Notes: generated by a model not told the origin, from the letters alone. Shown: positions 6,308-35,275, counted from the first letter of the stretch. The stretch: 44,923 nucleotides of DNA from Minisyncoccia bacterium (GCA_038228545.1 JBBRPE010000001.1:1-44923); one strand, 5' to 3'. Program-made: numbers and translations.

Positions 6308-8041
6308 CTAGTAGGCAGGGAATCCCTTTCTATCGGGAGGAACAGTGTAATAGTTTATCAAGAAATGGGTCAGCTCAAAAAATGGTGCAGTCAGGGTCTC
6401 AGATGCGTACTGTACACCCTTTGGCTCCTTCGTGTAGAGCAAGATAATGTATTTCGGGTCAGATGCCGGAAAGTAGCCGAAGAACGAGTGGAAATACAGC
6501 CCAGGAGCATACTTCCCTCCCGGACCTGCAATCTGCGCCGTACCAGTCTTTGCCGCAATGCTCATAGTCGGTATGGCAGCTTTACCGTTTGCAAGCTTTG
6601 TATCAACCACTTTAATAAGCATAGTGCTTGTTTGCGTGACTGCAGTTGGAGAATACACCTGCTCAGGTTTACCCCACGTAAGTGACTTCGTTACTCCATT
6701 TTGAAGTCGAATGGCACTCACTAAATGAGGCGTCACGACGGAACCCGCATCAGCAAGTGCACCGAGGGCCTTAATCATCTGCACCGGTGTTTCAGCTATA
6801 CCTTGTCCAAAGGAAGCGGTGTCGTACTCAATATCACGCGGGCTTGTTTTAATATTTTGAATATTACCCGCAACCTCGCTCGGTAAATCGATGCCGGTCT
6901 CCGTTCCAAAACCAAGATGTTCAAAATAAGAACGGAAGCGTTCATGCCCAAGGCGTGTTGCAAGATACGCTGCACCGACGTTAAGTGACTGCGACAAAAT
7001 CTCCTGCATAGGAGTGTTCGGGCCACGTGCTTTCAAGTCATAGTTACAAAATGTCTGCTTATTCACCGTGACACAACCCGTGTCGTTATAGGTTGATGTC
7101 GGGGTAATGACGCCTGCATCAAGCGCAGCTGTCATAGTAAGCGGCTTCATGATGGAACCAAATTCGTACTGGTGCTCCACAAGAGGATTACCGAAGTGCG
7201 CCGGATCGCCGTGAGCGAAATCATTCAGGTCAAATGACGGATACGAATCAAGTGCAATAATTTCACCTGTCTTTGGGTCCATAATAATGGCGCCTGTTTC
7301 AGCACTGGAGTAGCGAGCATTTGTTGCCGCAATCACCTGGTCAAGTTTCTCCTGTACGACTGGGTCTATCGTGGTAATGAGGTCGCCCTGGCGTGAAGCG
7401 CGCGCATTAACGACCACGTTATCAAGATTGGCAAACAGCTCAGCAAAGAAGTTACCAAAAAGGCCAACGGAATCACGATCAAGCACGTCGTTGTAGTAGC
7501 GCTCAAGTCCAAAACGTCCAGCGAGCGAGTTGTCATTATCAAACGCAACAAACCCAATGGATTGGGCAGCCTCAGTACCTGCCGGATACGTGCGCCATCG
7601 CTCGCGCGTTACGGTCACACCAGGTAGCTTCGCGGTACTGATGGCTGCACCAGCGTTCTCCGGTACACGGTGCGCGAGTACTTCATAGGGGTCAGTTGTT
7701 TTAGCTACGGATGTGGTAAAGGTACTTTGTTCAATCGGTGTAATCGCGTTGAGCGTACTGTAGGTCCCCGTTGCATTCTTTATCTGAGATGGATTTATAG
7801 AAACAGTGAATCCCGTACCAAGAGTTGCAGCTGAAAGAACCGTTTTGTCTTTACGAGTAAAGTAGATGCTTCCGCGGTCATATAACTCCTGGCTCGAACT
7901 TATGTATTGGCGATCAGCACGCAATGAGAAATCTCGACCGTGTACTATCTGAACAAAATACAGACGCACAAAAAGCAGTAGCGAAATGGCGAGAAGGATT
8001 CCCGAAAGAATACGAAGCCTGAGCCTGACCTCGCGTCGCAT
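6308..8041 (-). CDS. ftsI: Class B penicillin-binding protein (division transpeptidase)
   Basis: N-terminal TM; SIMK, SLN and KTG motifs; position after mraZ-rsmH-ftsL. Confidence 0.88.
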   Translation of the reverse strand: MRREVRLRLRILSGILLAISLLLFVRLYFVQIVHGRDFSLRADRQYISSSQELYDRGSIYFTRKDKTVLSAATLGTGFTVSINPSQIKNATGTYSTLNAITPIEQSTFTTSVAKTTDPYEVLAHRVPENAGAAISTAKLPGVTVTRERWRTYPAGTEAAQSIGFVAFDNDNSLAGRFGLERYYNDVLDRDSVGLFGNFFAELFANLDNVVVNARASRQGDLITTIDPVVQEKLDQVIAATNARYSSAETGAIIMDPKTGEIIALDSYPSFDLNDFAHGDPAHFGNPLVEHQYEFGSIMKPLTMTAALDAGVITPTSTYNDTGCVTVNKQTFCNYDLKARGPNTPMQEILSQSLNVGAAYLATRLGHERFRSYFEHLGFGTETGIDLPSEVAGNIQNIKTSPRDIEYDTASFGQGIAETPVQMIKALGALADAGSVVTPHLVSAIRLQNGVTKSLTWGKPEQVYSPTAVTQTSTMLIKVVDTKLANGKAAIPTMSIAAKTGTAQIAGPGGKYAPGLYFHSFFGYFPASDPKYIILLYTKEPKGVQYASETLTAPFFELTHFLINYYTVPPDRKGFPAY

Positions 8042-23371: not shown

Positions 23372-24227
23372 CGGTACTTTTTTGTTCTTCGGTACTCCCT
23401 ACGTAGCCCGCGATACGCTTTCTGCGCTCGTCCATGCAGGGTATGTGCCAGCTGCGGTCGTTACCTCACCGGACGCTCCGCAAGGCCGAGGTATGACGCA
23501 CACACCAACACCTACCAAAACGTGGGCGCTGGAACACGAACTGGAAGTACTGACTCCAGAAAAACTCACCAGTGACGTAATTGAGTCTCTCAAGAAGTAC
23601 GGAGCTGACTACGCGATAGTCGTGGCCTACGGGAAAATCCTTCCCGAGTCACTTATCCACGCCTTTCCAAAAGGAGTCCTTAATATTCATTACTCCCTTC
23701 TTCCCAAATATCGCGGTGCCTCCCCCGTAGAAAGCGCGTTACTCGCTGGAGACTCAGTAACAGGAGTCGCTGTGCAGAAGATGGTAAAGGAGCTCGACGC
23801 GGGAGATATAGTCTCCCTACGCGAAGTAGCAATTACTGAAACTGACACAACACGGGAACTTCGTCCACGGCTCATCACTGCCGGTAGTGAACTCCTTATC
23901 GAGACGCTTCCTGACTTTCTTTCTGGAGCTATCACACCCACACCCCAGGACGCTTTACACGCCACCAAGTGCGGAAAGATTGATAAATCCGAAGGCGAGC
24001 TCGACCTTGCAGGTAACGCACAGACAAATTGGAACAAGTACCGTGCCTATGCGGAGTCGCCGGGAACATATTTTTTCATCGAAAAGAATGGCAAGAAAAT
24101 GCGCATCAAGATAAAGACTGCACACTTTGCTGACGGAGTTTTTACGCCACTACGAGTCGTTCCTGAAGGAAAGAACGAGACGGACTACGCTGCACTTCTT
24201 ACTTCAGCAAAGCCCAAGGGGCAATAA
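23364..24227 (+). CDS. fmt: Methionyl-tRNA formyltransferase
   Basis: FFGTP, VVAYGKIL, NIHYSLLPKYRGASP, ELDAGDI; follows def; start could be 23358. Confidence 0.96.
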   Translation: MNSGTFLFFGTPYVARDTLSALVHAGYVPAAVVTSPDAPQGRGMTHTPTPTKTWALEHELEVLTPEKLTSDVIESLKKYGADYAIVVAYGKILPESLIHAFPKGVLNIHYSLLPKYRGASPVESALLAGDSVTGVAVQKMVKELDAGDIVSLREVAITETDTTRELRPRLITAGSELLIETLPDFLSGAITPTPQDALHATKCGKIDKSEGELDLAGNAQTNWNKYRAYAESPGTYFFIEKNGKKMRIKIKTAHFADGVFTPLRVVPEGKNETDYAALLTSAKPKGQ

Positions 24228-24232
24228 GTCAC

Positions 24233-24263
24233 AGAAGGGCCGCGCTTGCACGCGACCCCTTCT
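24233..24263. terminator. Terminator-like hairpin after fmt
   Basis: AGAAGGG.CGCG...CGCG.CCCTTCT. Confidence 0.6.
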
Positions 24264-24554
24264 CCTTTGTTACTACAGACGCAAAAACGGATTGAACCGA
24301 ATCTGCTTCCAGCTATTGGTTGCGATGTCGAAGCCCACCACGCATCCGGGCATTGCCTGTGGCTTTTGAGGCAGACTCAATGGCTCGCGTCGTGTGCCAT
24401 GACGTGAGCTCGTAGAGCCGCTGTATATAGTCTTCAGCGGCAACCGACTGCCTTCGCGCTCAATGTCGGTCTTGCATGCGTTCCTTTTTCTCATGGCACA
24501 TTCCTTTCGTGTCCTGCTGCCGGAACACACAGTACCGTATCGACAACAATAGTG

Positions 24555-24917
24555 CTACACACCAAATCGGAATAGATTTTTAAATCGATTACCCTCTTTC
24601 CGCAATATACTCTCGCGTTTTTTCTTTGCTACACGGAGTTCGCGATTAAGTTCTCCGATCATTGTGTCTACAGCCGTGCGAATGGAGTCGGATTCAGCCT
24701 TCGCGTAATGGCTTATACCATCTACGGTGAGATGAATGTCCGCATACCAAACGTTCCCGTTTACGTGCGCCTGTGTGATTTTACCGAGATCTACATACGC
24801 AAGTGCAGGCGTATCACGCTTGCCCAGGAATTTCTGTAACGACTCAAGTTTCCGTGTCGTTATTTTCTGTATGTCGGGAGTGATTTCATAATTGGTACCT
24901 TTGAATTGTATGTTCAT
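24555..24917 (-). CDS. hpf: Ribosome hibernation factor (HPF/RaiA family)
   Basis: MNIQFKGTNYEITPDI...AKAESDSIRTAVD...KLES pattern of the S30AE family. Confidence 0.85.
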   Translation of the reverse strand: MNIQFKGTNYEITPDIQKITTRKLESLQKFLGKRDTPALAYVDLGKITQAHVNGNVWYADIHLTVDGISHYAKAESDSIRTAVDTMIGELNRELRVAKKKRESILRKEGNRFKNLFRFGV

Positions 24918-24965
24918 GTGAAATCGATTAGCTCCTAAGACTCATTCCACTATAGCGTACTCCCC

Positions 24966-25205
24966 TTACCCGTATTTCTCGTGAAGATAGGCCATTATGT
25001 CGTCTGATTCATACATAGACACGTCGGTCTCATCGTCCACCATATAGGGCATCTGCTTCTTTCCGCCAAACTCCACAAGTTCTGCCGCAAACACCGGGTC
25101 GTGAACATCTTTGAGCACCAGCGGCTGTCCTGTACCTCGGGCGGCTTCGACGGTCTTTATACAAAAGGGGCACTCAGGATTGATATAGAGCGTAATCATA
25201 TTCAT
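24966..25205 (-). CDS. Glutaredoxin / GST-N-like protein
   Basis: CPFC motif; GGKKQMPYMVD; MYESDDI. Confidence 0.88.
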   Translation of the reverse strand: MNMITLYINPECPFCIKTVEAARGTGQPLVLKDVHDPVFAAELVEFGGKKQMPYMVDDETDVSMYESDDIMAYLHEKYG

Positions 25206-25281
25206 GTAGTATACCCGTTGCCGATTCGGTGATTTCCGCTAGAATACGACAGTCCTCCTACGAGGACATATCTCTACCTAT

Positions 25282-25353
25282 TCCGCGGTAGCTCAGCGGT
25301 AGAGCGGTCGACTGTTAATCGATTGGTCGCAGGTTCGATCCCTGCCCGCGGAG
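25282..25353 (+). tRNA. tRNA-Asn (GTT)
   Basis: Acceptor TCCGCGG/CCGCGGA, D-arm GCTCAGCGGTAGAGC, anticodon arm GTCGA-CTGTTAA-TCGAT, T-loop GGTTCGATCC; CCA not encoded. Confidence 0.97.
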
Positions 25354-25359
25354 CATCAA

Positions 25360-25388
25360 GAAAGAGCCATGTAATACATGGCTCTTTC
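25360..25388 (+). terminator. Terminator hairpin after tRNA-Asn
   Basis: GAAAGAGCCATGTA-A-TACATGGCTCTTTC; near-copy at 28398-28426. Confidence 0.85.
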
Positions 25389-25415
25389 GCGTTGGGGGGA
25401 GAACAGGAATATTAC

Positions 25416-26423
25416 TTATGGCGATTCAAATAAAGAAGGTAGCTGAACCAAATAGTCTTGGAGCTTTTTAACGTCCTCAAATCGATTTGTTTCGTGCCAG
25501 TACCGTAATTTCATGTAGGCGTTCACTACCACTGCGGCCTTGAGCAGATTCTCATCGTATTTTTCATCTCCAAAATAGCCCTCCACTATTTGCCTACCTG
25601 GTTCATTCAATCCACTCCTTACTGCTAAGACTAGCGTTCTAGCCAAGTCCATATAAGGGTGGTTTAGAAATGGAATCGGATCAAACACCGTAAGAGGGTC
25701 AGTTGCAAAGATGTTCGCTATAGAAAAATCACTGTGGCCATACACAGTACTCGAGTCAGAGCCTATTTCTCTAAAGAGAACCTCTTGTGCCTCTGGTAAT
25801 GAACCATGTGCCTCATCTTTCAAAAGTTCATGCTCCTTCACGTATAAGAATTTATCTTGCAAAGAAGACCTGTCTAACCAAGTTTTAATATCCGGGAATT
25901 CAGGCTGGCCGTTTATTATGGATCCATAGCCGTTAGCTGTTGCCGTATGCATCTTCCTTAAGACTACGCCCATTTCTACATATAATTTTTTTCCTATAAG
26001 TTGCTCTACGGTATGCGCATGACGTAACGGGAGAGCATCAATATATTCCATCAGTATATAAGGGTGACCGACTATCTCTCCGGCTTCGATAACGTGAGGG
26101 ACACTCACTCCAACCTGTTCCCAAGCCTTAAGGAAGACCGCTTCGTTTCGTGAGAATTCTTTTTTAAGAGGAATCTTTAAAACATATTTCTCATGTCCAG
26201 TGTCCAGAATACTAACCAGCGATGATATGCCGCTGTGCGAGAAAGTAACCTCTATCGGTTTTCCGTTAAATAGTTTGTGTTCAGCAATGAAACTTGCTAT
26301 CTCGCGAGCGAGCAGTTTTCTCTTTTCGTCAAACTCCTTATCGATCTCATACCCGGTAAGTCGAGGTTCGTTTAAAAAGACTATCGATTCGGTATTTCTT
26401 GTGGCTTCGGGTTCCATGGGCAA
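25416..26423 (-). CDS. Aminoglycoside phosphotransferase (APH)-like kinase
   Basis: YVLKIP, VSVPHV, YILMEYI, HSDFSIANI and VFDP kinase motifs. Confidence 0.85.
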   Translation of the reverse strand: MPMEPEATRNTESIVFLNEPRLTGYEIDKEFDEKRKLLAREIASFIAEHKLFNGKPIEVTFSHSGISSLVSILDTGHEKYVLKIPLKKEFSRNEAVFLKAWEQVGVSVPHVIEAGEIVGHPYILMEYIDALPLRHAHTVEQLIGKKLYVEMGVVLRKMHTATANGYGSIINGQPEFPDIKTWLDRSSLQDKFLYVKEHELLKDEAHGSLPEAQEVLFREIGSDSSTVYGHSDFSIANIFATDPLTVFDPIPFLNHPYMDLARTLVLAVRSGLNEPGRQIVEGYFGDEKYDENLLKAAVVVNAYMKLRYWHETNRFEDVKKLQDYLVQLPSLFESP

Positions 26424-26444
26424 ATTATACCAGTGAGGCTTATC

Positions 26445-26552
26445 CTATACTGCCGTACTTTCCATCAGCCTAATCATATAGAGCCGCTGGGCCATCTGAT
26501 TTATGTATTCTCTATTGAACAGCAGCGGTATATTTGCGTGATGGTCTGGGAA
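26445..26552 (-). repeat. Type I junction tail copy 1 (start-less 35-codon frame)
   Basis: Translates FPDHHANIPLLFNREYINQMAQRLYMIRLMESTAV*. Confidence 0.85.
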
Positions 26553-26672
26553 AATTGCGTCTCGCCGTCGAGTCCCACTTCCCTGTCGGGTGGGTGCTTA
26601 GTAGTACTGATGCTCTGTGGGTTGCACGGGAGTAGGAGTAGAACCTTTGGTGTATGGGACGATACTGGAACT

Positions 26673-27173
26673 TTACTTAATTCTCTGCCATACAGACAAA
26701 AAGTATATTAAAAGAGCAAAAGAAAAAAAAGCAAGTGCATAAATCCATGGAATAAGATTGAAAGTAACTAGACCTATGTGAACAAATGCTATCCAAAAAT
26801 TCAAGGAGAATTCAAAGACAGAAGGCCATCCCACAATTTTAACTACAGAGGCATATGAACCTGCTGGCCATGCAGTACATAGAGCTACAAAGAATAATCC
26901 TACAAAAGACAGAACTTTTTTGTGCAAAAGAAAATAACCACTGCTAGCAATTAAAAATGCTCCTATGATTTCGAGAAGCCATGGGAGAATATGCATGAAT
27001 ATCCCAAACACTGCATACCCACGTATCTGAGGATAAGTCTTTATAAATGGGAAGATGATTGAAAACACTACAAAATTAAGACTAGCGGCACTTAAGAAGC
27101 TTATTACTAACGCGAGTGCAAAAAACAATAGTCCTTTCATGGGTTTAGGTTTTGTTATAAGTATAACAAACAA
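26673..27173 (-). CDS. Hypothetical integral membrane protein
   Basis: 166 aa, ~4 TM segments, AT-rich; start may be the internal ATG (MKGLL). Confidence 0.65.
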   Translation of the reverse strand: MFVILITKPKPMKGLLFFALALVISFLSAASLNFVVFSIIFPFIKTYPQIRGYAVFGIFMHILPWLLEIIGAFLIASSGYFLLHKKVLSFVGLFFVALCTAWPAGSYASVVKIVGWPSVFEFSLNFWIAFVHIGLVTFNLIPWIYALAFFSFALLIYFLSVWQRIK

Positions 27174-27187
27174 GTCTTGCTGGAAGA

Positions 27188-27295
27188 CTAGGTATCAAGC
27201 CTCTCCATCGCTCTGATGAGATACAACTGTTGAGCCATTCCGCTCATGTACTCCCTATTAAATAGAAGTCGTATATTAACGTGATGTTCGGGGAA
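27188..27295 (-). repeat. Type I junction tail copy 2
   Basis: Translates FPEHHVNIRLLFNREYMSGMAQQLYLIRAMERLDT*. Confidence 0.85.
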
Positions 27296-27458
27296 AATTC
27301 CCTTCCCGTGTCGAGTCCTGCCCCCCCTGCCTTGTGTTCACTTGCTCGAACTAAACACGTAGAGCTAAGACCCAAGCGGGAATAGAACCTTGAAGTCTAT
27401 GCCAGGCAGACTGGGACGATGCTGGAACCTTTTTGAGGTTCGCTTATAGTAATAGACA

Positions 27459-27992
27459 ATGAAATCACTCTTCCTCATCCTTGTCGACGGCCCAATGGGC
27501 TCCGGCAAAACGACTACCACAAAACTACTCAGTCAGAAGCTGCCTGACGCAGCCCGAATTGCGTTTCCCGACATCAAACGCCTTATACCGAATTATAAAG
27601 AGAACGAGAAAACTCTTCCTGTAATCCGAGAGGTAATGAAGGTAATGATTGATAAGTATCTAGAACTTGATACAAGCGTAATCGTTGAACAAATAGCAAA
27701 AGCCGATGGTATTGAGATACTCAAAGGTATTGCCGCAAGACATGGAGCTAAATTCTTTGCTTACAGGCTAAGCGCACCTAAGGAAGTTCGAATGGAACGG
27801 GTGAAAGAAAGAACTCGTGGAATGATGGAGATTCCAGAATTACCTGAATCAAAAGTCTTAGAATTGAAAAGTTACTTTGGGCCAAATGACGAGTTTTATA
27901 TAATTAATCCATCAAACCTAGTTTCAATTATTGATACTCAAGAACTTGGTCCAGAACAGGTTGTGGATGTCATAATCAATAACATTTCCTGA
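27459..27992 (+). CDS. P-loop small-molecule/nucleotide kinase (AAA_33-like)
   Basis: Walker A GPMGSGKTT; lid motif ERVKER. Confidence 0.85.
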   Translation: MKSLFLILVDGPMGSGKTTTTKLLSQKLPDAARIAFPDIKRLIPNYKENEKTLPVIREVMKVMIDKYLELDTSVIVEQIAKADGIEILKGIAARHGAKFFAYRLSAPKEVRMERVKERTRGMMEIPELPESKVLELKSYFGPNDEFYIINPSNLVSIIDTQELGPEQVVDVIINNIS

Positions 27993-28024
27993 AAAGTGCC
28001 GGTAGTCTGAGTATTGAATCTCAA

Positions 28025-28054
28025 ACAGGTTCGAACTTCCTCCAGCCAGTGGAG
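28025..28054 (-). repeat. Type II junction copy 1
   Basis: ACAGGTTCGAACTTCCTCCAGCCAGTGGAG; minus strand reads LHWLEEVRTC. Confidence 0.8.
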
Positions 28055-28122
28055 TAAAATATTAGACTGTCGCCACTTGCAAATACTCCCAAAAACACCT
28101 CAAATTCAATACTGCTGGCAAA

Positions 28123-28230
28123 CTAAGTGCCGGATTTCTCCATAATCCTAATCAAATAGAGCTGTTGAGCTAACTGATTCATATATTCCCTATTGAACAG
28201 CATCGGTATATTAATCTGATGTTCCGGGAG
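28123..28230 (-). repeat. Type I junction tail copy 3
   Basis: Translates LPEHQINIPMLFNREYMNQLAQQLYLIRIMEKSGT*; abuts CCGGGAGCA and a hairpin. Confidence 0.85.
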
Positions 28231-28265
28231 CAAATAGAAACCCCCGAAAGGGGGCTTTTCTATTT

Positions 28266-28392
28266 CTCCGCGGAGTGAGCCTGGGAGGCTCTCGTGTAGG
28301 ATTCGAAGAAACTTATGCGAGCATTTTGTGATTCATAGAGCAGAATCCGCAAAGTGGACAGCGAGTGTAGCTCGAGTGTCCTACCCGCGGAG
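28266..28392. repeat. Fold-back repeat element, copy A
   Basis: CTCCGCGG...CCGCGGAG outer stem matching the tRNA-Asn 3' end; conserved core. Confidence 0.88.
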
Positions 28393-28495
28393 CATTCAAA
28401 AGAACCACGTAATGCGTGGCTCTTTTGCGTTAGATGCTATCGCGAATATAACTTTCTCAGTTTAGAACGCTTTCTTCACTGCTATACTCCGTCTC

Positions 28496-29035
28496 ATGAG
28501 GGAGCGCCCAAAACTTATCATGCTCGGTGGCTTTGCTGCCTCCGGCAAGAGCACTATCGCGGAGCGGTATATTTCAGACCACCCACTTGCGCTTTGCGTC
28601 GAGGGTGACGAGATCATAACCAAACTTGGTCAATGGCGATCGCATATCAAGGAAGCGGTGGAATCCAAATTCTCACTGACAGCATGCATGGCCACGACTC
28701 ATCTGCGTGTTGGATATGACGTGATACTTCCTTTTCTTCTCGGAAATGAAAGTCATGCAGAAATGTATGAGAATCTTGCAACCGAAGCAGGTGCTGATTT
28801 CTTCGAGTTTTACATCTACGATAAGAAGGACGAGGCGATTAAACGTCTGCTTGCACGTGGTTCATGGGGCGAGACAGGACTTCCTCCAATAACCCAAGAG
28901 GACCTTCCGAGAATCGAGCGTTTATATGAGGAGATGATTGAAGCAGTCGCTAAGCGTCCGAATATGATTACGATCGAATCTACAGAGGGTGATATCGAAG
29001 GAACATACAAGGCTCTAATCACGGGACTACCCTAA
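28496..29035 (+). CDS. P-loop small-molecule/nucleotide kinase (AAA_33-like)
   Basis: Walker A GFAASGKST; KRLLAR lid. Confidence 0.85.
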   Translation: MRERPKLIMLGGFAASGKSTIAERYISDHPLALCVEGDEIITKLGQWRSHIKEAVESKFSLTACMATTHLRVGYDVILPFLLGNESHAEMYENLATEAGADFFEFYIYDKKDEAIKRLLARGSWGETGLPPITQEDLPRIERLYEEMIEAVAKRPNMITIESTEGDIEGTYKALITGLP

Positions 29036-29142
29036 ACGGCAGCAACTTTTTCCATCAACCTAATCAAATACAACTGTTGAGCCATCTGTTTCATGTACTC
29101 TCGGTTGAATAGCAAGGGTATATTAATGTGATGTTCTGGGAG
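29032..29142 (-). repeat. Type I junction tail copy 4
   Basis: Translates LPEHHINIPLLFNREYMKQMAQQLYLIRLMEKVAAV*; abuts GGGAGCCA. Confidence 0.85.
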
Positions 29143-29215
29143 CCAAGATTTATTTGGACAAGTTTCATTCGTAATGTAATCTTTATTTACGTCATTTTGA
29201 CGAAGGAGATTACAG

Positions 29216-29371
29216 ATGGGCACTGACCCAAATGTCAGAGGAAAACTCCAGGCTGACTTAGCTCGGGGAATCACAGAGGCCTTACGCCTATATGCTAAAG
29301 AGAATGGGTTTTCCGAAGAGTTTATCATGCAGCAAGCGCGTGACTTGCTTGTTGTGAAGCCTCCGACTTGA
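29216..29371 (+). CDS. Small hypothetical protein (51 aa, not in ORF track)
   Basis: MGTDPNVRGKLQADLARGITEALRLYAKENGFSEEFIMQQARDLLVVKPPT*; AAGGAG RBS; terminator at 29403-29432. Confidence 0.6.
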   Translation: MGTDPNVRGKLQADLARGITEALRLYAKENGFSEEFIMQQARDLLVVKPPT

Positions 29372-29437
29372 TCAACGATGATGTGTCGTGATTTCGTCAC
29401 AAGAGCCCCGCGCCAGCAACGGTCGCGGGGCTACTTT

Positions 29438-29476
29438 TTATACAAAACAGGTTCGAACATCCTCCACCCAGCGGAG
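29438..29476 (-). repeat. Type II junction copy 2
   Basis: Minus strand reads LRWVEDVRTCFV*. Confidence 0.85.
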
Positions 29477-29513
29477 TAAATGAAATCAGCACCCTTGTGG
29501 TGCTTTTTCGTTT

Positions 29514-29642
29514 GCTCCGCGGAGTACGCCTGGGAGACGTACGTGCAGGGATCGAAGAAACTTATGCGAGCATTTTGTGATTCTAAGAACAAAATCCGCA
29601 AAGTAGATAGCGACCGTAGGTCGAGTTCCCTGCCCGCGGAGC
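29514..29642. repeat. Fold-back repeat element, copy B
   Basis: GCTCCGCGG..GCAGGGATCGAA (antisense tRNA 3' end)...TCCCTGCCCGCGGAGC (sense tRNA 3' end). Confidence 0.9.
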
Positions 29643-29648
29643 TAATAT

Positions 29649-29677
29649 TTGACAGATTTAGATAAATGTGATATATA
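29649..29677 (+). promoter_or_regulatory. Sigma70 promoter directly after element B
   Basis: TTGACA-N17-TATATA with TG extension. Confidence 0.7.
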
Positions 29678-29739
29678 GAAAATAGCACGAGCTCTTAAAG
29701 TTCGTTTGTCCTACTCAATTTAATCAAGGGAACGGAAAC

Positions 29740-30207
29740 ATGTGCATCGAAAAATACGAGGCATTCATGACGCGACAGCTCGCGCAAACATCGCCGATTC
29801 GAGCAGCGTTTGAGGGCATGTCGATCGGCAACGATATGGTTGTCGAAGTTGGCGATCTTGTGTGGTGGCCGTGTCGCGGCGAAACTATCCTCCTCGGCGC
29901 AGTTAAGCTTAGAAGCGGAAAATGCCTCGCGCTCGGGTATGAGAACGGTACATTCATGGTGCCGCTCGACTCACGAGAATCGTGGGTACTTAACAGTCTT
30001 CAAGAACTACCACGTCTCGAACTCGAAGACGACCACATCGCAGTCTATTTCACCAACGAACGCTACCTGATGGCAATGCACGCTCGTGAATACGGCACCC
30101 TGGCGCCGCCGTGCTCATGGCGCTATTCGGGAATCGGGTCTGGAGGTTTAACGGCTCTCCGGCAGTTCGAGAAGCATGACATGACCCTAACAGTCGAACA
30201 CGACTAG
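29740..30207 (+). CDS. Hypothetical protein
   Basis: 155 aa; own promoter and terminator (30250-30282). Confidence 0.65.
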   Translation: MCIEKYEAFMTRQLAQTSPIRAAFEGMSIGNDMVVEVGDLVWWPCRGETILLGAVKLRSGKCLALGYENGTFMVPLDSRESWVLNSLQELPRLELEDDHIAVYFTNERYLMAMHAREYGTLAPPCSWRYSGIGSGGLTALRQFEKHDMTLTVEHD

Positions 30208-30285
30208 TCGCTCGAAGAAGCCCGGAGGAATTACTTCCCCGCCGATCTTCCGATGGCCGCTCTCCCCGAGAGCGGCCATCTTCTT

Positions 30286-30320
30286 TTATACAAAAGTCAA
30301 ACATCCTCCACCCAGCGGAG
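30286..30320 (-). repeat. Type II junction copy 3 (degenerate)
   Basis: ACATCCTCCACCCAGCGGAG; minus strand LRWVEDV*. Confidence 0.8.
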
Positions 30321-30352
30321 CCGGTTAGCCCAATCGCCCTTCGTGGCGATTT

Positions 30353-30462
30353 TGCGTTACATGTTCGCGAGTAGGATTCGAAAAATTTCTGCGCGCTTTT
30401 TGCAATGCAAAAATTGCAAAGTGGACAGCGAGTGTAGCTTGAGAATCCTATTTCATTACGCA
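30353..30462. repeat. Fold-back repeat element, copy C (divergent)
   Basis: TAGGATTC/GAATCCTA stem, TTTTTGCA/TGCAAAAA, AAAGTGGACAGCGAGTGTAGCT identical to copy A. Confidence 0.8.
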
Positions 30463-30521
30463 TTTATGACCTTGACGCTCACCCTTTATTTAGGGTAAGC
30501 ACTTACTGATCGCAAATCTTT

Positions 30522-31649
30522 TTACCAACCAGGTGGAAGTTCCGTCCCCCCACCGGTCATAAAGATACTTTTTGAAAGATCAAGGCAATTAGGAATTGAG
30601 GCTTTGAAATAATCATCGTGACCTACATCGAGAACAAGTCCTGGGTACTTCCATGACTCAGCACCTGCGTACATAAGATCCGAAGGACTATCCGAAACAT
30701 GACCGCGCAACGTTTGATGCGGAGAGCAAGTCGGTACGAATCCAAGAGTATGCATCGTTTCATGCAACATATCAAAATCAAGATACCCAGGATTTGTAGC
30801 AGAAGATGCAAGAAAATTAGATTCACATGGAGCGGCTACAGGATTGCCACCTTGCATATATTCTGCCGCTACGTGCCCCTTCAGATTGGGTGGCCATGCT
30901 CCACCTCCACAACTCGTATTACTATGACCATCGTAGTAAACCGCGTACAATTTGTGCGGATCAATAAATCCTAATTCCCGTAAATGTTTTTCTAGGTCGT
31001 CTCGTACATAGGGGTTTGAACTTGCGCTCGTGCTCCACGGTAAATCGGAGCCTTCTTTAACTGTTTTATCAGTTTGATTCAAGCGAACGAAGGTGACGTC
31101 AAGTGCTCCGTTATGAGTGTCTACCTTCATACCCTGACCTCCGGTCTGCGTACAAAGCCAATCTTCCCAGGAAGATACTGATGTTGCGATGGCACCATTC
31201 GTGTCGTATGCGTGATCAGTCCCATCGCTCGGAAGGACATAGACGATATGAACTTGGTAGCCGGACTGATCGTCAGTTTGGTCAATTGCTGAACGACTTA
31301 CCGGGATTTTAAGTGAAGTTATGCAGGGGTTTATCTCCTTTGTAGAAACTGCTTCAGTTTTAGTGCTTGGTACTGTTGGAATCACAGGCTGGACAGGATT
31401 CTCGACGGGAGGAGATAGTGGAGTCTTTGGGAGAGGTTGAGTTTGTGACGGATAAATAGAATTTGAAACCCCTGTGGTTTTAGGAGACGGAGAGGTGCTT
31501 GCCTGATTATTAATTCGAGTTTGAACTACAGTAACTTCACTGTTCGCCGGAGTTTTTGCAATCCCTAAAAGGGGTACAGGGAAAACAGAATTGATAAACG
31601 AATTTATACCGAGGAACACTATCACTAAGGCATTCTGAATAAATTGCAT
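30522..31649 (-). CDS. Secreted/surface zinc metallopeptidase-like protein
   Basis: N-terminal hydrophobic signal, P/T/S-rich linker, HETMHTLG (HExxH) and SDLMY Met-turn-like motif. Confidence 0.75.
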   Translation of the reverse strand: MQFIQNALVIVFLGINSFINSVFPVPLLGIAKTPANSEVTVVQTRINNQASTSPSPKTTGVSNSIYPSQTQPLPKTPLSPPVENPVQPVIPTVPSTKTEAVSTKEINPCITSLKIPVSRSAIDQTDDQSGYQVHIVYVLPSDGTDHAYDTNGAIATSVSSWEDWLCTQTGGQGMKVDTHNGALDVTFVRLNQTDKTVKEGSDLPWSTSASSNPYVRDDLEKHLRELGFIDPHKLYAVYYDGHSNTSCGGGAWPPNLKGHVAAEYMQGGNPVAAPCESNFLASSATNPGYLDFDMLHETMHTLGFVPTCSPHQTLRGHVSDSPSDLMYAGAESWKYPGLVLDVGHDDYFKASIPNCLDLSKSIFMTGGGTELPPGW

Positions 31650-31844
31650 TTGCTTTAAGTATAACGCTACACAGGGTTTTTCTTCCGTGCCGACTAGTAT
31701 GGAAAGGTGTGGATGGGCACCATGAATGATTTAGGCTGAAACTCTTCAAGTTAGTTCGTGTGCACTAATTCCGACAGAGAGTCGGCATTGTAGTAGATTA
31801 GCGCCGCAAGACGAGGTTCCATTCCCCACTTCTGCGTTTTTCTT

Positions 31845-31880
31845 TTATATACAGGTTCGAACATCCTCCAGCCAGCGGAG
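31845..31880 (-). repeat. Type II junction copy 4
   Basis: Minus strand reads LRWLEDVRTCI*; followed by hairpin 31881-31916. Confidence 0.85.
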
Positions 31881-31933
31881 TAAATGAAAAAAGCGCCAAT
31901 GGCGCTTTTTTCATTTCAGCAGTTGAGAAACGT

Positions 31934-32281
31934 CTATGAGCCAAGCTTCGCGGCCGCTTCAGGGGTTGAGACGGTCTTGCTCATTAAGAAAATCCGGATA
32001 ATCCCCCACGCCACCAGTAGATATACCAGCATGGCAAGAACGGTCGTCCATTCAAATACCGAGCCAGCAACATACGTTCTTGGAAACACCGTGAGGAATG
32101 GCTGAGCGAATGGCCACGTTACTGTGTAAATAAAACTGGCAAACCCGGAGCCTGCATTTGCAGCGGTCATCTTCAATACAAAACGAAAGGCCAGAAGTAT
32201 TTCGATTACGGCTAATATATACCAAACGATCTGAGTCCCACGAAAAATAGGTTTGGTGGTCGGTGAATTGTATGAGTCCAT
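31934..32281 (-). CDS. YggT-like membrane protein
   Basis: IEILLAFRFVLK...FIYTVTWPFAQPF...LAMLVY pattern. Confidence 0.75.
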   Translation of the reverse strand: MDSYNSPTTKPIFRGTQIVWYILAVIEILLAFRFVLKMTAANAGSGFASFIYTVTWPFAQPFLTVFPRTYVAGSVFEWTTVLAMLVYLLVAWGIIRIFLMSKTVSTPEAAAKLGS

Positions 32282-32293
32282 AGGTATATAAGG

Positions 32294-32425
32294 TTAAGTT
32301 AGCAGGCGCACGACAACAATAATCACAACTAAAACGAGAAGCGTATGGATAAGATTACCTCCCAAATGGAAGCTGAATCCTAGTAACCATAGTACGAAGA
32401 CGATGACAGCAATGGTCCACAACAT
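32294..32425 (-). CDS. Lmo0937-family small membrane protein
   Basis: MLWTIAVIVFVLWLLGF...GGNLIHTLLVL, 43 aa. Confidence 0.8.
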   Translation of the reverse strand: MLWTIAVIVFVLWLLGFSFHLGGNLIHTLLVLVVIIVVVRLLT

Positions 32426-32536
32426 AGTGAGAAGGGATTTAGGAGAGTAAGTGACCGGCGTGACATTCGCTGAGCGCATCGACACTAGGAAACAAATGTA
32501 TATCAAAAGTATACACCCCGATTAGGATACCTATTT

Positions 32537-32652
32537 CTCCGCGGAGTACGTCTGGGAGACGTACGTGCAGGGATCGAAGATGTTGCGTGCATTTTGTGAA
32601 GCAAAATCCTCAACATGTACGTTCCCGTAGGGAAAAGTCCCTACCCCCGGAA
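32537..32652. repeat. Fold-back repeat element, copy D
   Basis: CTCCGCGGAGTACGTCTGGGAGACGTACGTGCAGGGATCGAAGA nearly identical to the 5' part of copy B. Confidence 0.88.
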
Positions 32653-32658
32653 CAAGAC

Positions 32659-32686
32659 TTGACAAAAACAGTGAGAGTGCTAAAAT
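32659..32686 (+). promoter_or_regulatory. Sigma70 promoter directly after element D
   Basis: TTGACA-N16-TAAAAT with TG extension. Confidence 0.7.
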
Positions 32687-32723
32687 TTATATTCTGCTCT
32701 TTACATGAAATTAGGAGAATACA

Positions 32724-33368
32724 GTGAGCACACACGGAAATCGAAAAACGCCCGAAAATGTTTCGGTCGAGACTCCGGGCGGCTACAAACTCGCTTCAAC
32801 CTTCCTGGGTCGTGATTTCGTCACGCCCGAGGAAGTGATGCGTGCGCGGCGCGGTGTCGTCTACACCGACGAGCAACTCGCCCACTTCGTCGAGACCATT
32901 CCGACGGAAGACGTCCTTCGGTGGTGTCAGGAAAACAACTTCGTTCTGATGCCTCTGCCGCCCCTACCGTTGTCTCTCCTCGAGGTGCGCGGACTCAACC
33001 TCAGCCTGTTCTTCTCGAAGATTGGCGGCTGGTACGCCGACCACGCCGAGAAGTTTTCGACGGTGACAAAGACCGGCAGTGGCTGGCTCCTGGTCGGCAA
33101 GCAACAACTTCCAAAGCCCGTCACGAATATGTGGGACGAAGTGCGTCCCACATGGGCGTACGTGCCAAGCGCGGTCGAGATGTGCTGGATGCTGACCACC
33201 TTCTACGAGGTCTATGGGATCCGCCTCTACGGCAGCACCTACGTCAGGACTTCGAGCGTGGCCACGCACGGTAAGGTCCGGCTTGGCGGATTCCAGCCGC
33301 AAGGCATCGGTATTCACTTCACGAACGAATCCTTCGATATGCCTTTCGCTTGGGCGAGAACGCCCTGA
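32724..33368 (+). CDS. Hypothetical protein
   Basis: 214 aa, GTG start with AGGAG RBS, GC-rich; long terminator hairpin 33404-33458. Confidence 0.75.
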   Translation: MSTHGNRKTPENVSVETPGGYKLASTFLGRDFVTPEEVMRARRGVVYTDEQLAHFVETIPTEDVLRWCQENNFVLMPLPPLPLSLLEVRGLNLSLFFSKIGGWYADHAEKFSTVTKTGSGWLLVGKQQLPKPVTNMWDEVRPTWAYVPSAVEMCWMLTTFYEVYGIRLYGSTYVRTSSVATHGKVRLGGFQPQGIGIHFTNESFDMPFAWARTP

Positions 33369-33461
33369 TCGAAAAGCACGCCGACTCTTCTGAGAACGGC
33401 TTACCGCCCCACGTCGAAACGAAGCCTAACCCCTTCGTTTCGACGGAGGGGCGGTTTTCTT

Positions 33462-33500
33462 TTACACTAAACAGGTTTTAACATCCTCTAGCTAGCCAAG
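33462..33500 (-). repeat. Type II junction copy 5 (degenerate)
   Basis: ACAGGTTTTAACATCCTCTAGCTAGCCAAG; minus strand LG*LEDVKTCLV*. Confidence 0.7.
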
Positions 33501-33572
33501 TCAGACTTTTAATCTAAGTAATGACTCATTTTTAAATGTTAAGATTACTTAACATTACTAAAGATACACTTT

Positions 33573-34067
33573 ATGCACATAAAATTTATCATTGGAGGAA
33601 TTATTGGAATAGCAGTACTTGGATTTGGGTACTACGCTATTTCCCCTGTTTTTAATAAAGTCAAAGTTAACGACGAGCTTCCCGTAAGTACTGCCGGAAA
33701 CACCAGTGTGCCTAGTGCAAACGGCACGACCTCACCCACGAATGAGCCGGCAATGAAAGGTACTGCATCTGCAGAAGTTATGGGAACGCTCGGTCACCCA
33801 GCTTCAGGTACTGTGCGCATCGTGACGGTAAACGATAAAAAATATATTCGTTATGAAAACTTCAAGACAATAAACGGTCCAGATATCTATGTATATCTAT
33901 CCAAGGATCTTGGTGCAAAAGAGTATGTCAGCCTCGGTAAGGTAACCGCAACCGAAGGAAACATAAATTACGAAATTCCTGCCACTGTTAATCCGAACGA
34001 CTACAAATATGTGCTTACGTGGTGCAAGACATTTGGGGTTTTATTCAATTCAGGACAACTCAATTAA
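33573..34067 (+). CDS. DM13 domain-containing membrane-anchored protein
   Basis: HPASGTV, NGPDIYVYLS, GNINYEIP, VLTWCKTFGVLF. Confidence 0.88.
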   Translation: MHIKFIIGGIIGIAVLGFGYYAISPVFNKVKVNDELPVSTAGNTSVPSANGTTSPTNEPAMKGTASAEVMGTLGHPASGTVRIVTVNDKKYIRYENFKTINGPDIYVYLSKDLGAKEYVSLGKVTATEGNINYEIPATVNPNDYKYVLTWCKTFGVLFNSGQLN

Positions 34068-34108
34068 AAAAGGGCTTGTATAACTTGTTGTACTCGGGAA
34101 GCGACTGT

Positions 34109-34170
34109 ACTACCGTCCAGTCACCAGAGCAAATGAACGCACCCCTTCCGGGGTGTTGTTCATTTACTTC
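34109..34170. repeat. Type III junction copy 1 with hairpin
   Basis: ACTACCGTCCAG shared with 37702-37713, then GAGCAAATGAAC...GTTCATTTACTTC. Confidence 0.6.
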
Positions 34171-34218
34171 ACCAAGAACGCCACTGGAACCTTCTCGTAC
34201 TTTCTATAGAATGAACGC

Positions 34219-34785
34219 ATGAGTTTGACCGACCAACAGGCAGTAGAAGCGACCCTACGAGATCGACATGCGTTTTCAATACTTGTTGAGCGATATCAGG
34301 CGCCATTACTTCGATACATTCAGCGTCTCGGAACGCTCGACGCTGACGTGGCTAAAGATATTCTCCAAGAGACGTTCATCAAGGTGTACTTAAATTTAAA
34401 CGATTATAATCCGACGCACCCTTTTAGCTCGTGGGCATACCGAATTGCGCATAACGAAACAATGATACACTTCCGGCGACAAAAGCACCGTCCAGTAGTG
34501 CTCGACCCGGAACAGTACACGACGTTGTTCGAATCCATTCCGGATGAACTGGATATAGAGAAAGAAATTGATGTGGGGCGTACAAGTGTCGATGTTGGTC
34601 AAGCCATCGCAAAACTAAAACCTGTGTATAGAGACATTCTCGTTCTCCGTTTCTTCGAGAATAAAAGTTACGACGAAATTTCATATATTCTTGAAATTCC
34701 GAACGGTACTGTGGCGACAAACCTTGCTCGAGGCAAGAAAGCATTGGCGCTCGAGCTCAAAAATAAGTACATAACTGACATATAA
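34219..34785 (+). CDS. ECF RNA polymerase sigma factor
   Basis: DILQETFIKVY, FSSWAYRIAHN, SYDEISYILEIPNGTVATNLARGK. Confidence 0.93.
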   Translation: MSLTDQQAVEATLRDRHAFSILVERYQAPLLRYIQRLGTLDADVAKDILQETFIKVYLNLNDYNPTHPFSSWAYRIAHNETMIHFRRQKHRPVVLDPEQYTTLFESIPDELDIEKEIDVGRTSVDVGQAIAKLKPVYRDILVLRFFENKSYDEISYILEIPNGTVATNLARGKKALALELKNKYITDI

Positions 34786-34786
34786 T

Positions 34787-35275
34787 ATGGAAACGATGGA
34801 TACATTTTCGGAACAAGTAGAAAAAGAAATCGTGGCACGGGGTGTAACGCCACTTCCCCGCTGGCATTTCCTTGTACGCCGATCAGTATTCTGGACGCTT
34901 GCGGTCTTTTCAATAATCGTCGGAACCATTGCGTTCTCGGCAGCTGACTATGTGTTTTTTGATAATGAAGGAATGAGCGCAGCAACTATTCTTGAGTCTC
35001 CTATTGAGGTAATTGTGCAGACAGTTCCGTTTGTATGGCTTATTGTCTTTGGTCTCTTCGTAGCAAGTGCGTATTTGGGTCTGCGTAAAACCCGTAGTGG
35101 CTATAAATATCGGGCCCTGCTTGCGGTATCCGGCGTCATTGTTGTAACCATTGCTTTGGGAATGCTCCTAAATCTTTTCGATTTCGGGCAGACGGTACAC
35201 TATTACCTCCTCCACCACACAACATTCTATAACGCCCTCATACATTCTAGTGATGACGTACAAGTTCCTTTTTGA
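34787..35275 (+). CDS. Membrane protein, probable anti-sigma partner
   Basis: 3 TM segments; coupled 1 nt after the ECF sigma. Confidence 0.65.
   Translation: METMDTFSEQVEKEIVARGVTPLPRWHFLVRRSVFWTLAVFSIIVGTIAFSAADYVFFDNEGMSAATILESPIEVIVQTVPFVWLIVFGLFVASAYLGLRKTRSGYKYRALLAVSGVIVVTIALGMLLNLFDFGQTVHYYLLHHTTFYNALIHSSDDVQVPF

Follow-up and report, generated by a model that had tools for sequence, protein, structure and literature searches.

The window analysed here, a stretch of 44,923 nucleotides from a Minisyncoccia bacterium, contains a tRNA-Asn gene followed by a row of small gene units, each ending in a short motif (the type II motif) that resembles part of the tRNA gene, and the locus raises the question of what this motif is and how the units came to stand in a row. 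We propose, from sequence comparison and with a probability of roughly three in four, that the type II motif represents the element-side half (P-arm) of an attachment site, and that large serine recombinases (LSRs) use it to integrate DNA at the 3' terminus of tRNA-Asn.

Five type II copies, four good and one decayed, are found on the plus strand 3' of tRNA-Asn, with the consensus ACAGGTTCGAACATCCTCCAsCCAGCGGAG (Table 1). A preliminary description of this DNA had listed five copies and all of them are present; the positions that it gave as 29438, 30286, 31845 and 33462 are those of the T-rich leads of the copies. With up to three mismatches allowed, the 22-mer GAACATCCTCCASCCAGCGGAG matched four times in the window and in none of 100 shuffles; a scan of the whole genome (736 kb, same tolerance) yielded four matches, all in the window array, and none with the reversed control. 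Of the sequence common to the motif and tRNA-Asn, CAGGTTCGA is exact in three of the five copies and in the tRNA gene, and GCGGAG or GTGGAG is found in four of the five. In a set of 49 copies the conserved stretch begins at the T-rich lead and breaks off sharply after GCGGAG(C), and further copies look alike. A cargo-gene terminator (hairpin and T-run) stands directly before the motif at three of the five copies in the window, in agreement with the earlier account; the terminators of units C and E were detected by scan and the one at 29403-29436 by eye, since its loop is longer than the scan allows. The units carry their own promoters and terminators, with cargo in both orientations, and unit E is followed by the conserved genes DM13 and sigma-70.

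Table 1. The tRNA-Asn gene, type II copies and units of the array, with positions counted from the first nucleotide of the window
Feature	Position	Strand	Content or remark
tRNA-Asn(GTT)	25282..25354	+	ARAGORN; Rfam tRNA 70.9 bits
Unit A	25355..28054	+	From tRNA-Asn 3' end to type II copy 1; terminator hairpin, APH-like phosphotransferase (-), 166-aa ORF (-), AAA_33/zeta-like kinase (+)
Type II copy 1	28025-28054	+	
Unit B	28055..29476	+	Ends in type II copy 2; D1 repeat, hairpin, type I element (28265-28393), terminator, second AAA_33 kinase, D1 repeat, 51-aa ORF, terminator
Type II copy 2	29447-29476	+	
Unit C	29477..30320	+	Ends in type II copy 3; hairpin (29488-29504), type I element (29514-29642), promoter-like TTGACA, 155-aa ORF, terminator (30252-30280)
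Type II copy 3	30291-30320	+	5' third including GGTTCGA lost
Unit D	30321..31880	+	Ends in type II copy 4; start CCGGTTAGC, hairpin, partial type I element (30367-30449), 375-aa ORF (-)
Type II copy 4	31851-31880	+	
Unit E	31881..33500	+	Ends in type II copy 5; hairpin (31882-31916), YGGT-like ORF, DUF5670 ORF (-), type I element (32536-32653), promoter TTGACA-16-TAAAAT (32659-32686), 214-aa ORF, terminator (33430-33451)
Type II copy 5	33471-33500	+	Decayed

The motif is widespread among relatives. We collected 180 distinct copies at 88 places, in Patescibacteria: the motif turns up in 26 of the 200 further genomes sampled from the same family, often as same-strand clusters (reversed control 0), at 27 loci in a collection of genome contigs, nearly all labelled Patescibacteria and with up to 11 copies in 8 kb, and in 77 stretches from metagenomes. 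One of the 27 loci, on a 2.6-kb contig, is labelled cyanobacterium. Within the DNA retrieved for each place, 16 of the 88 places show a detectable tRNA-Asn gene ahead of the motif in the same orientation, and tRNA genes other than tRNA-Asn number just 6 in these loci, which bears out the tie to tRNA-Asn on which the preliminary description had made its reading depend. A collection of viral contigs contained neither an exact motif nor a relative of P0006, a tRNA-Asn-type LSR.

Comparison of two relatives defines the unit boundaries. In one genome (G084) a histidine-phosphatase unit begins right after the GCGGAGC of tRNA-Asn and ends at the GCGGAGC of its own type II motif; in another (G182) the homologous unit (79% identity over 848 nt) is bounded by a motif on each side and is preceded by an extra 550-nt single-gene unit with a type II motif of its own. 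Homology between the two starts directly behind one GGAGC and runs up to the next, that of the unit's own motif. Small units are thus inserted immediately behind the GCGGAG of the tRNA-Asn 3' end, each having the type II motif as its right-hand boundary, and the motif travels with the unit on its left. When the island was compared by blastn with all loci retrieved from relatives, junction modules only were shared and no cargo; the terminator and type II copy 5 of unit E are 82% identical to the last unit of a relative (G005).

LSR genes are found at the tRNA end of such insertions. In one locus (L037), tRNA-Asn (1402-1474) is adjoined by a gene for an LSR of 533 aa with the tail NPVLLRG* (P0001; Resolvase PF00239, Recombinase PF07508 and Zn_ribbon_recom PF13408), and a single type II motif (8001-8022) follows about 6.5 kb beyond the tRNA, then the conserved core gene TruB. 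In another genome (G201), tRNA-Asn is adjoined by an LSR gene (568 aa, tail QTLLRG*), with the first type II motif 8.3 kb further on and at least 10 more after it. These are the two complete elements seen from LSR to type II motif, their right ends being assigned by position. The site marks the integrase-distal end of the inserted DNA, and the core that it has in common with the target is short, GCGGAG(C) only. In a further genome (G076), a decayed type II-like stretch, a hairpin and a type I element stand at the end of a 20-kb LSR element, and any of them may be its arm; in general, a role of the type I junction as an att arm is doubtful.

The two classes of site differ in spacing. The gap between GGTTCGA and GCGGAG is 9 nt in tRNA-Asn, including that of the window (21 of 23 distinct genes by pattern; the other two, with a variant acceptor missed by the pattern, have the same length by eye), vs 14 nt in every scorable type II copy (116), the remaining 64 of the 180 having no clean anchors. 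If the centre of exchange is placed between the two Gs of GGAG, GGTTCGAAY occupies half-site positions 16-24 in the type II motif and 11-19 in the tRNA; the junction data allow the centre only within the 7-nt GCGGAGC, and the chosen point falls inside it. Rutherford et al. (2013, PMC3783163) place the ZD motif of LI integrase, a 9-bp word read by the zinc-ribbon domain, at positions 16-24 in attP and 11-19 in attB. The 5-bp offset between type II motif and tRNA matches this published attP-attB geometry of serine integrases, and the last 25 nt or so of tRNA-Asn (GGTTCGATCCCTGCCCGCGGAG) would be the host-side (B) half-site. The earlier suggestion of an attP-derived arm thus gains support from the movement of the motif with its left unit, from its place as first site after tRNA-adjacent LSRs and from its attP-type spacing. 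The unit starts, which would be the P' half-sites, are weakly alike (A-rich CARA after GGAG) and no clear dyad symmetry with the motif was seen, so a complete attP is not evident in units without an LSR. In the LSR-side arms a ..GAAC word was noticed by eye, at a different distance.

Constant spacing also bears on another explanation, that the motifs are passive, decayed tRNA-Asn 3' ends, i.e. direct repeats left by tRNA-targeting islands, with the extra bases and the encoded peptide being accidental. The motif does align to the tRNA 3' half if about five inserted bases are allowed, and CAGGTTCGA and GCGGAG are common to both; decay, however, would scatter the lengths, which is contradicted by a 14-nt gap kept constant across many genera, and the inner bases are preserved as a distinct word, ACATCCTCyAnCCA. 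Moreover, the motif belongs to the incoming unit, and exchange at GCGGAG keeps the tRNA's own half, so that no tRNA fragment is displaced. We regard this explanation as improbable. The motif might alternatively be a secondary host-type target (decoy attB) for LSR elements rather than an element-borne arm, since some type II-like sites do have an LSR gene or remnant as their immediate right-hand neighbour, in a register identical to that at the tRNA. Later insertion of a unit between the tRNA and an LSR element would yield that layout as well, and with spacing of the attP type instead of the attB type, in a motif that moves with the unit on its left, a decoy target has little to recommend it.

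The P-arm reading would also account for the peptide encoded by the motif. The minus-strand peptides noted earlier (LHWLEEVRTC.., LRWVEDVRTCFV*, LRWVEDV*, LRWLEDVRTCI* and LG*LEDVKTCLV*; asterisks mark stops) were read again as described, and recombinases with such an end exist. Two loci (L147 and L047) hold C-terminal LSR remnants of 100-140 aa that run in frame through ...SPFNLVLELADNPNW into LRWVEDVRTCSV* (..NPNW followed by LRWVEDVRTCSV*). Of the 120 homologues listed for this remnant, the tail stops at LRG* or similar in 58, continues through the antisense strand of the tRNA (..DSN..) in 36, is of the LRxx[ED]DVRT type in 14 (e.g. LRWVDDVRTSLL and LRTWEDVRTCIL; mostly about 510-540 aa) and is of another kind in 12. 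CTC CGC encodes Leu-Arg in the same frame in both the tRNA and type II contexts, and the difference between DSN and VRT tails is explained by the frame change expected from a 5-bp shift. The LRW tail is realised only where the motif has an LSR gene on its right, and no copy in the window does. LRW-frame ORFs upstream of the motif mostly have fewer than 40 open codons (49, 57 and 106 copies examined), the real LSR remnants among them being those of L147 and L047 only; the longest of those inspected (L018 and L019) appeared by eye to lie antisense to SET-domain-like genes as shadows of them. A search pattern in which LSR-tail DNA follows the motif end was found in 6 of 401 genomes of the order, mostly at genuine tRNA-LSR junctions, and gave no new motif-LSR case. 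The start of unit D, CCGGTTAGC, resembles CCAGTTAGG, which encodes ..PNW at LSR gene ends, and is possibly a scar.

No tRNA-Asn-type LSR was found in the genome of the window, whose two LSRs adjoin tRNA-Tyr and tRNA-Ser; tblastn with LSR queries detected no LSR remnant in the window, and no ORF in this genome ends in EDVRT besides the motif copies themselves. Three other array-bearing genomes (G005, G080 and G084) have no Recombinase-domain match. In the one DNA sequencing run, a set of contigs, the pieces break at repeats and give one weak, untrusted joint (side 28, 90% likeness). No excised circle was seen. The window's own array, without a recombinase, may be static.

The T-arm mimicry claimed for the motif holds in letters (T-loop and 5' stem strand) but not in structure. 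Single-strand folding of two copies on both strands was no better than that of shuffles (z -0.9 to +0.15); the 5-bp stem that would close the 7-nt TTCGAAY loop is absent, with just the loop and 5' stem strand present, and the predicted fold pairs other bases, weakly. The likeness is therefore confined to sequence. Integrons use the tyrosine recombinase IntI, an attI site, attC sites that fold as single strands, and cassettes that lack promoters and are transcribed from Pc, and the arrays share with them a fixed entry point and rows of small units of one or two genes with varied cargo, each with a conserved end site. An integron-like system in which the motif is a folded, attC-like site and tRNA-Asn serves as attI is nevertheless very unlikely: the motif does not fold on either strand, units have their own promoters and terminators and cargo in both orientations, and the junction genes reading into the site encode LSRs and not tyrosine recombinases. 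No Phage_integrase-family gene is present among 141 ORFs of eight arrays, and the single PF00589 match of the genome is on another contig (C2). A tRNA-resembling RNA-level signal for processing or termination at the ends of cassette transcripts is scarcely credible even though many copies lie just 3' of terminators and just 5' of the next promoter, as the motif has no fold, neither it nor the type I element had an Rfam match (24000-35000, E up to 1), most copies are beyond the terminator T-run, and the LSR frame and unit boundaries would be left unexplained.

If the type II motif is the P-arm, insertion could proceed as follows. A circular unit would carry a site made of the type II motif joined to the unit start, and an LSR would pair this site with the tRNA end, strand exchange taking place inside the common GCGGAG, probably at GG. 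The tRNA would be left intact, and the inserted unit would carry the motif at its far (right) end. Each further insertion at the tRNA junction would displace older units outward, giving tRNA-Asn followed by one unit and its motif after another, and units without an LSR gene would be moved in trans. We know of no serine integrase that targets attL again after insertion, and one insertion after another at the tRNA junction would therefore need an extra property of the enzyme. The outer DNA-binding domain of the LSR would read GGTTCGAAY in both partners, 5 bp further from the crossover in the element site, which would explain the T-arm likeness of the motif. LSR genes at the left edge of the element would read outward across the crossover into the site, which would explain the peptide: an LSR abutting the tRNA would end in LRG* or ..QDSNLRP.., and one abutting the type II motif in LRWxEDVRT.., the latter arrangement arising in the excised circle or once a later unit inserts between tRNA and LSR.

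The proposed layout is an integron-like stacking of small units at tRNA-Asn built with a different enzyme, an LSR; our literature search found no paper describing such a system for CPR. The composite SCC and SCCmec islands of staphylococci are likewise inserted by Ccr LSRs at the 3' end of a conserved gene (rlmH/orfX), accrete in tandem and can be moved in trans when lacking an LSR. They are tens of kb in size and have a protein-gene target, no tRNA-like site and no overlap between recombinase tail and site; in the CPR arrays the target is a tRNA and the tail overlaps the site. To our knowledge, phage integrases form no rows of many units at one attB, and their attL is inert without a directionality factor. 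The LI/A118, Bxb1 and phiC31 sites (PMC3783163) are like the CPR sites in having the same word in both partners, 5 bp closer to the crossover in attB, and a short core. In contrast to phage-type sites, the second half-site is not recognisable in the CPR units.

The closest printed parallel is provided by the Dehalococcoides ssrA islands (McMurdie et al. 2011, PMC3146451). There, islands with the CcrB-like LSR DsiB lie in tandem 3' of a tRNA-like gene; the LSR is encoded on the reverse strand beside attL, the 3' end of its gene overlapping the RNA gene or its repeat; its stop codon and C-terminus depend on context (circle or adjacent island); and some islands have no integration module. These islands have a 20-bp ssrA direct repeat as boundary, an insertion point in the T-loop and a size of about 12 kb with a six-gene integration module, whereas the CPR boundary is a distinct, attP-spaced site rather than a tRNA repeat, exchange would be at the very 3' end, and units mostly span 0.5-1.5 kb, hold one or two genes and lack integration genes. 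Prochlorococcus tycheposons (Hackl et al., bioRxiv 10.1101/2020.12.28.424599) use a few tRNA targets, newer elements pushing older ones deeper into variable islands of a streamlined genome with degenerate remnants and partial tRNAs; tyrosine recombinases are present in 910 of 937, boundaries are partial tRNAs and replication modules occur. Cargo at a tRNA and, under the proposed mechanism, outward displacement of older elements are common to both, and the CPR arrays differ in their association with a serine recombinase and in a distinct boundary motif.

A more ambitious joint reading, to which we give a rather low likelihood, is that of a CPR gene-capture platform in which units rebuild the tRNA target and a switch in the LSR tail senses the state of the element. 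The left edge of each unit, with a terminator hairpin and often a tRNA-matched type I element, would imitate the native downstream flank of the tRNA, so that each insertion rebuilds a usable target there and one-gene units are stacked and shed like integron cassettes. The last 3-15 residues of the LSR would switch with position (LRG*, ..DSNLRP.. or LRWxEDVRT..), so that the tail would sense whether the element is integrated, displaced or excised and bias the direction of recombination.

If the P-arm reading is true, the arrays would show in nature, in about 100 independent copies, the 5-bp difference between attP and attB that has been proposed for serine integrases. They would also supply many compact serine integrases directed to tRNA genes, with site pairs that can be read from sequence and may be of use as genome-engineering parts. 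In CPR bacteria (Patescibacteria), whose genomes measure about 0.7 Mb, few ways of gaining genes are recognised, and stacking at tRNA-Asn would explain the strain-variable accessory region in 26 of the 200 sampled genomes of this family and in many other CPR groups.

The type II motif (ACAGGTTCGAACATCCTCCAsCCAGCGGAG) occurs at five places in the window, all downstream of the tRNA-Asn(GTT) gene and on the same strand. When a 22-nt core of the motif was searched with up to three mismatches, four matches were found in the window versus none in 100 shuffles, and no match was found elsewhere in the 736-kb source genome, which has 13 contigs and whose contig C1 begins with the window (44.9 kb). This confirms the motif as first observed in the preliminary description; the minus-strand peptides listed there agree with our translations, and a hairpin plus T-run lies immediately before three copies, as had been stated for three terminators. 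The motif had also been described as a mimic of the tRNA T-arm, which holds for the letters (5' stem strand, TTCGAA loop, and acceptor 3' strand) and fails for the fold: single-strand folding of the motif was no better than that of shuffles, and the T-arm likeness is thus one of letters only. We propose that large serine recombinases (LSRs) insert small gene cassettes (units) at the 3' end of tRNA-Asn, each unit ending in its own type II motif, which would be the element-side (attP-type) half-site. The earlier interpretation of the motif as an attP arm is supported by unit boundaries in two relatives (G084 and G182), whole elements at two further places (L037 and G201), motif spacing (14 versus 9 nt), and LSR tails.

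Among 200 other genomes of the same family, 26 carry the motif, often with 2-5 same-strand copies clustered in a few kb, and a reversed-motif control gave 0 matches across the 200. Genome contigs contained 27 type II loci holding as many as 11 copies per 8 kb, and 77 stretches with the motif came from metagenome contigs; none was found in the viral contigs searched. The related loci are nearly all labeled Patescibacteria/CPR, including Paceibacterota, Parcubacteria, and Nomurabacteria. The collected set comprises 180 distinct copies at 88 places, 16 of which have a same-strand tRNA-Asn gene upstream (many loci have only 1.5-2 kb of flank). The aligned copies are conserved from their T-rich lead up to a sharp edge at the end of AGGTTCGAACATCCTCyAnCCAGCGGAG(C), beyond which comes either a promoter of the TTGACA type or a hairpin resembling a terminator. 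The arrays share one syntenic spot in the order murA, def, fmt, HPF, tRNA-Asn, and array (gene names taken from the Pfam matches EPSP_synthase, Pep_deformylase, Formyl_trans_N, and Ribosomal_S30AE), and their cargo is unrelated between genomes. ARAGORN misses tRNA-Asn in some relatives because a group I intron interrupts the gene (Rfam RF00028, 62 bits, in two relatives). The tRNA-Asn array of another genome (G024) contains two IS200-like Y1 transposase genes of 237 aa.

The limits of a unit were derived from a histidine-phosphatase unit present in two genomes. In G084 its left neighbor is the tRNA end (..GCGGAGC), and a type II motif closes it on the right; the G182 counterpart, 79% identical over 848 nt, has a type II motif on either side and is separated from the tRNA by a 550-nt unit with one reverse-strand gene. 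The homology starts just after GGAGC and reaches as far as the GGAGC in the motif of the histidine-phosphatase unit itself. A unit therefore consists of all DNA after GCGGAG through its own motif; the motif is part of the inserted DNA, and either the tRNA end or a type II motif can be the left neighbor of a unit. The right half-sites, i.e., the unit starts, are poorly conserved.

LSRs are present in 122 of 201 family genomes. At three loci in relatives (L064, L075, and L085) they adjoin tRNA-Asn, and the tail ..LRG before the stop is the antisense of ..CCTACCCGCGGAGC. The last codons of the two LSRs of the source genome, at tRNA-Tyr and tRNA-Ser, are also the antisense of the tRNA 3' end, with VVRREGFEPS as the tail at tRNA-Tyr. 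An attP-type arm predicts whole elements with the recombinase at the tRNA edge and the motif at the far edge, and such elements were found. At L037, a 533-aa LSR with Resolvase, Recombinase, and Zn-ribbon domains comes after tRNA-Asn; 5 kb of cargo separate it from the one type II motif there, past which lie TruB and other core genes. In G201, an LSR of 568 aa follows tRNA-Asn, and the first type II motif is found 8.3 kb on, succeeded by at least ten more. The 20-kb LSR element of G076 holds a decayed type II-like stretch, a hairpin, and a type I element at its far end, which leaves the arm ambiguous. In the two intron-bearing relatives, the LSR gene still overlaps the 3' exon of tRNA-Asn, and one of these LSR elements (in G097) includes a stretch that matches LOOT RNA (Rfam RF03000) with 48.9 bits, above the gathering score.

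The motif and the tRNA differ in spacing. The gap from GGTTCGA to GCGGAG is 14 nt in 116/116 type II copies with both anchors intact (in the other 64 of the 180, an anchor is mismatched) and 9 nt in 21 of 23 distinct tRNA-Asn genes of the collected loci; in the remaining two, a variant acceptor is unmatched by the pattern and the gap is equal in length by eye. For the LI integrase, Rutherford et al. (PMC3783163) showed that the ZD motif, a 9-bp word recognized by the zinc-ribbon domain, occupies half-site positions 16-24 in attP and sits 5 bp closer to the crossover in attB, at 11-19. If the GG of GCGGAG is taken as the crossover, GGTTCGAAY occupies positions 16-24 in type II and 11-19 in the tRNA; this assumed center lies within GCGGAGC, the only 7 nt common to tRNA and motif beside the junction. 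The zinc-ribbon-type domain of the LSR would read the same word in both partners, and the placement of GGTTCGAAC relative to the crossover, with its 5-bp offset, would matter for LSR exchange. The type II motif would then resemble the T-arm because one protein domain reads both.

The peptide LRWxEDVRT can be understood in the same frame. Across GCGGAG, the LSR genes beside tRNA-Asn have the codons CTC CGC (Leu-Arg), and the reported LRW.. frame uses identical codons. An LSR gene with a type II motif on its left would therefore run on as LRWxEDVRT.. and terminate within a few codons. As the preliminary description had supposed, recombinases with this type of tail exist: two loci (L147 and L047) carry LSR C-terminal remnants of 100-140 aa ending in ..SPFNLVLELADNPNW joined to LRWVEDVRTCSV and a stop. 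A homologue search with that remnant gave 252 proteins; most of the 120 listed are full-length LSRs of about 505 aa. After ..NW, 58 of these 120 stop at LRG or similar, 36 read through the tRNA antisense (..QDSNLRPID), 14 have type II-like tails (LRWVDDVRTSLL, LRTWEDVRTCIL, LRIVEDVRTII, LRILDDVRTCC, and others), and 12 have other tails (five LPLVDKFRT-like). DSN and VRT are two frames of one TTCGAA, a difference that the 5-bp offset predicts. The LRWxEDVRT tail would be acquired in an excised circle, or once a later unit separates the LSR from the tRNA; no such circle was observed. McMurdie et al. raised the same context-dependent possibility in their account of DsiB (PMC3146451). The V/I/L/M and E/D pattern in type II is compatible with coding constraint, which is not proof of it.

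Locations of features in the window, the source genome (contigs C2-C9), and related loci (L numbers)
Feature	Location	Strand	Remark
tRNA-Asn(GTT)	25282-25354	+	ARAGORN, Rfam
Type II copy 1	28025-28054	+	
Type II copy 2	29447-29476	+	
Type II copy 3	30291-30320	+	5' part lost
Type II copy 4	31851-31880	+	
Type II copy 5	33471-33500	+	decayed
Unit A	25355-28054		
Unit B	28055-29476		
Unit C	29477-30320		
Unit D	30321-31880		
Unit E	31881-33500		
APH-family phosphotransferase (APH-like)	25416-26423	-	cargo
AAA_33/zeta-toxin-like small kinase	27459-27992	+	cargo
AAA_33/zeta-toxin-like small kinase	28496-29035	+	cargo
100-nt repeat	26457-26556		
100-nt repeat	27200-27299		
100-nt repeat	28135-28234		
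100-nt repeat	29047-29146		
Type I element	4836-4972		matches tRNA-Glu of contig C10
Type I element	28265-28393		
Type I element	29514-29642		
Type I element	30367-30449		partial
Type I element	32536-32653		
Type I element	C2:106517-106638		
Type I element	C3:18390-18481		
Type I element	C3:71372-72251		
Type I element	C4:2-103		
Type I element	C4:2163-2281		
Type I element	C7:5-107		
Type I element	C8:33286-33417		
Type I element	C9:24834-24936		
LSR (L033)	C6:35650-37218		opposite strand to tRNA-Tyr or tRNA-Ser; near contig end
LSR (L034)	C4:62165-64044		opposite strand to tRNA-Tyr or tRNA-Ser; near contig end
Group I intron in tRNA-Asn	L094:10189-10476	-	
Group I intron in tRNA-Asn	L095:10213-10415	+	
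LOOT RNA	L094:6317-6432	-	
Y1 transposase	L026:661-1374		
Y1 transposase	L026:7682-8395		

The island in the window can be read as five units. The cargo of the first units may have a theme of small-molecule or nucleotide phosphorylation; further cargo comprises a YGGT-like protein, a DUF5670 protein, and several ORFs without family. Unit D starts with CCGGTTAGC, which resembles CCAGTTAGG, encoding ..PNW at LSR 3' ends, and may therefore carry a scar. Four copies of a 100-nt repeat are 67-81% identical to the reference copy and contain a short minus-strand ORF (..PEHxINIPxLFNREYMxQxAQQLYLIRxMEK..); two are situated immediately upstream of cargo genes on the minus strand, namely the APH-like gene and a 166-aa ORF, and the repeat could be a leader peptide or a gene-end remnant.

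To our knowledge, serine integrases do not normally reuse attL, and stacking at one tRNA thus needs explanation. The left edge of a unit may imitate the sequence that natively lies downstream of the tRNA. Within the window, TAAA.. comes after three of the four well-preserved type II motifs; at copies 2 and 4 it is succeeded by a hairpin like the tRNA's terminator, and an 85% copy of this terminator comes after the type I element of unit B. Type I elements are about 130 nt long, with about 15 copies in the source genome, several located at a distance of 30-52 nt (Arg, Ser, Ala, and Trp) or 105 nt (Gln) downstream of another tRNA gene. The elements are not simple tRNA fragments: every copy has a conserved core (GGATTCGAA, GTGTAC, and a TGTAAG loop), which is surrounded by the T-stem and the two acceptor strands of the tRNA to which that copy belongs. 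Compensatory changes occur in 13 of 18 predicted pairs. An Rfam search of window positions 24000-35000 gave no match for the element, which may be a structured RNA or DNA site within the native flank of tRNA genes. Contig ends often fall at type I copies. Window positions 1-5000 have a G+C content of 35-43% versus about 50% elsewhere; the boundary coincides with a type I-like element and may therefore mark a further island edge.

The ssrA islands of Dehalococcoides (PMC3146451) are a known case of this kind, in which an LSR stacks islands in tandem at a tRNA-like gene and its own tail overlaps the site; SCCmec and tycheposons are looser parallels. The system proposed here differs from these in the very small size of its units, in a boundary formed by a dedicated attP-type half-site instead of a direct repeat of the target, in exchange at the very 3' end of the tRNA, and in a layout that is widespread in CPR; the titles and abstracts searched gave no description of it for CPR. 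No recombinase gene was found among the 141 ORFs of eight arrays, and no LSR or LSR remnant was detected within the window. The source genome has no LSR from any of the three tRNA-Asn lineages seen in relatives, and its one tyrosine-recombinase match is on a different contig from the window's. The array in the window may be either a fossil or served in trans by incoming elements.
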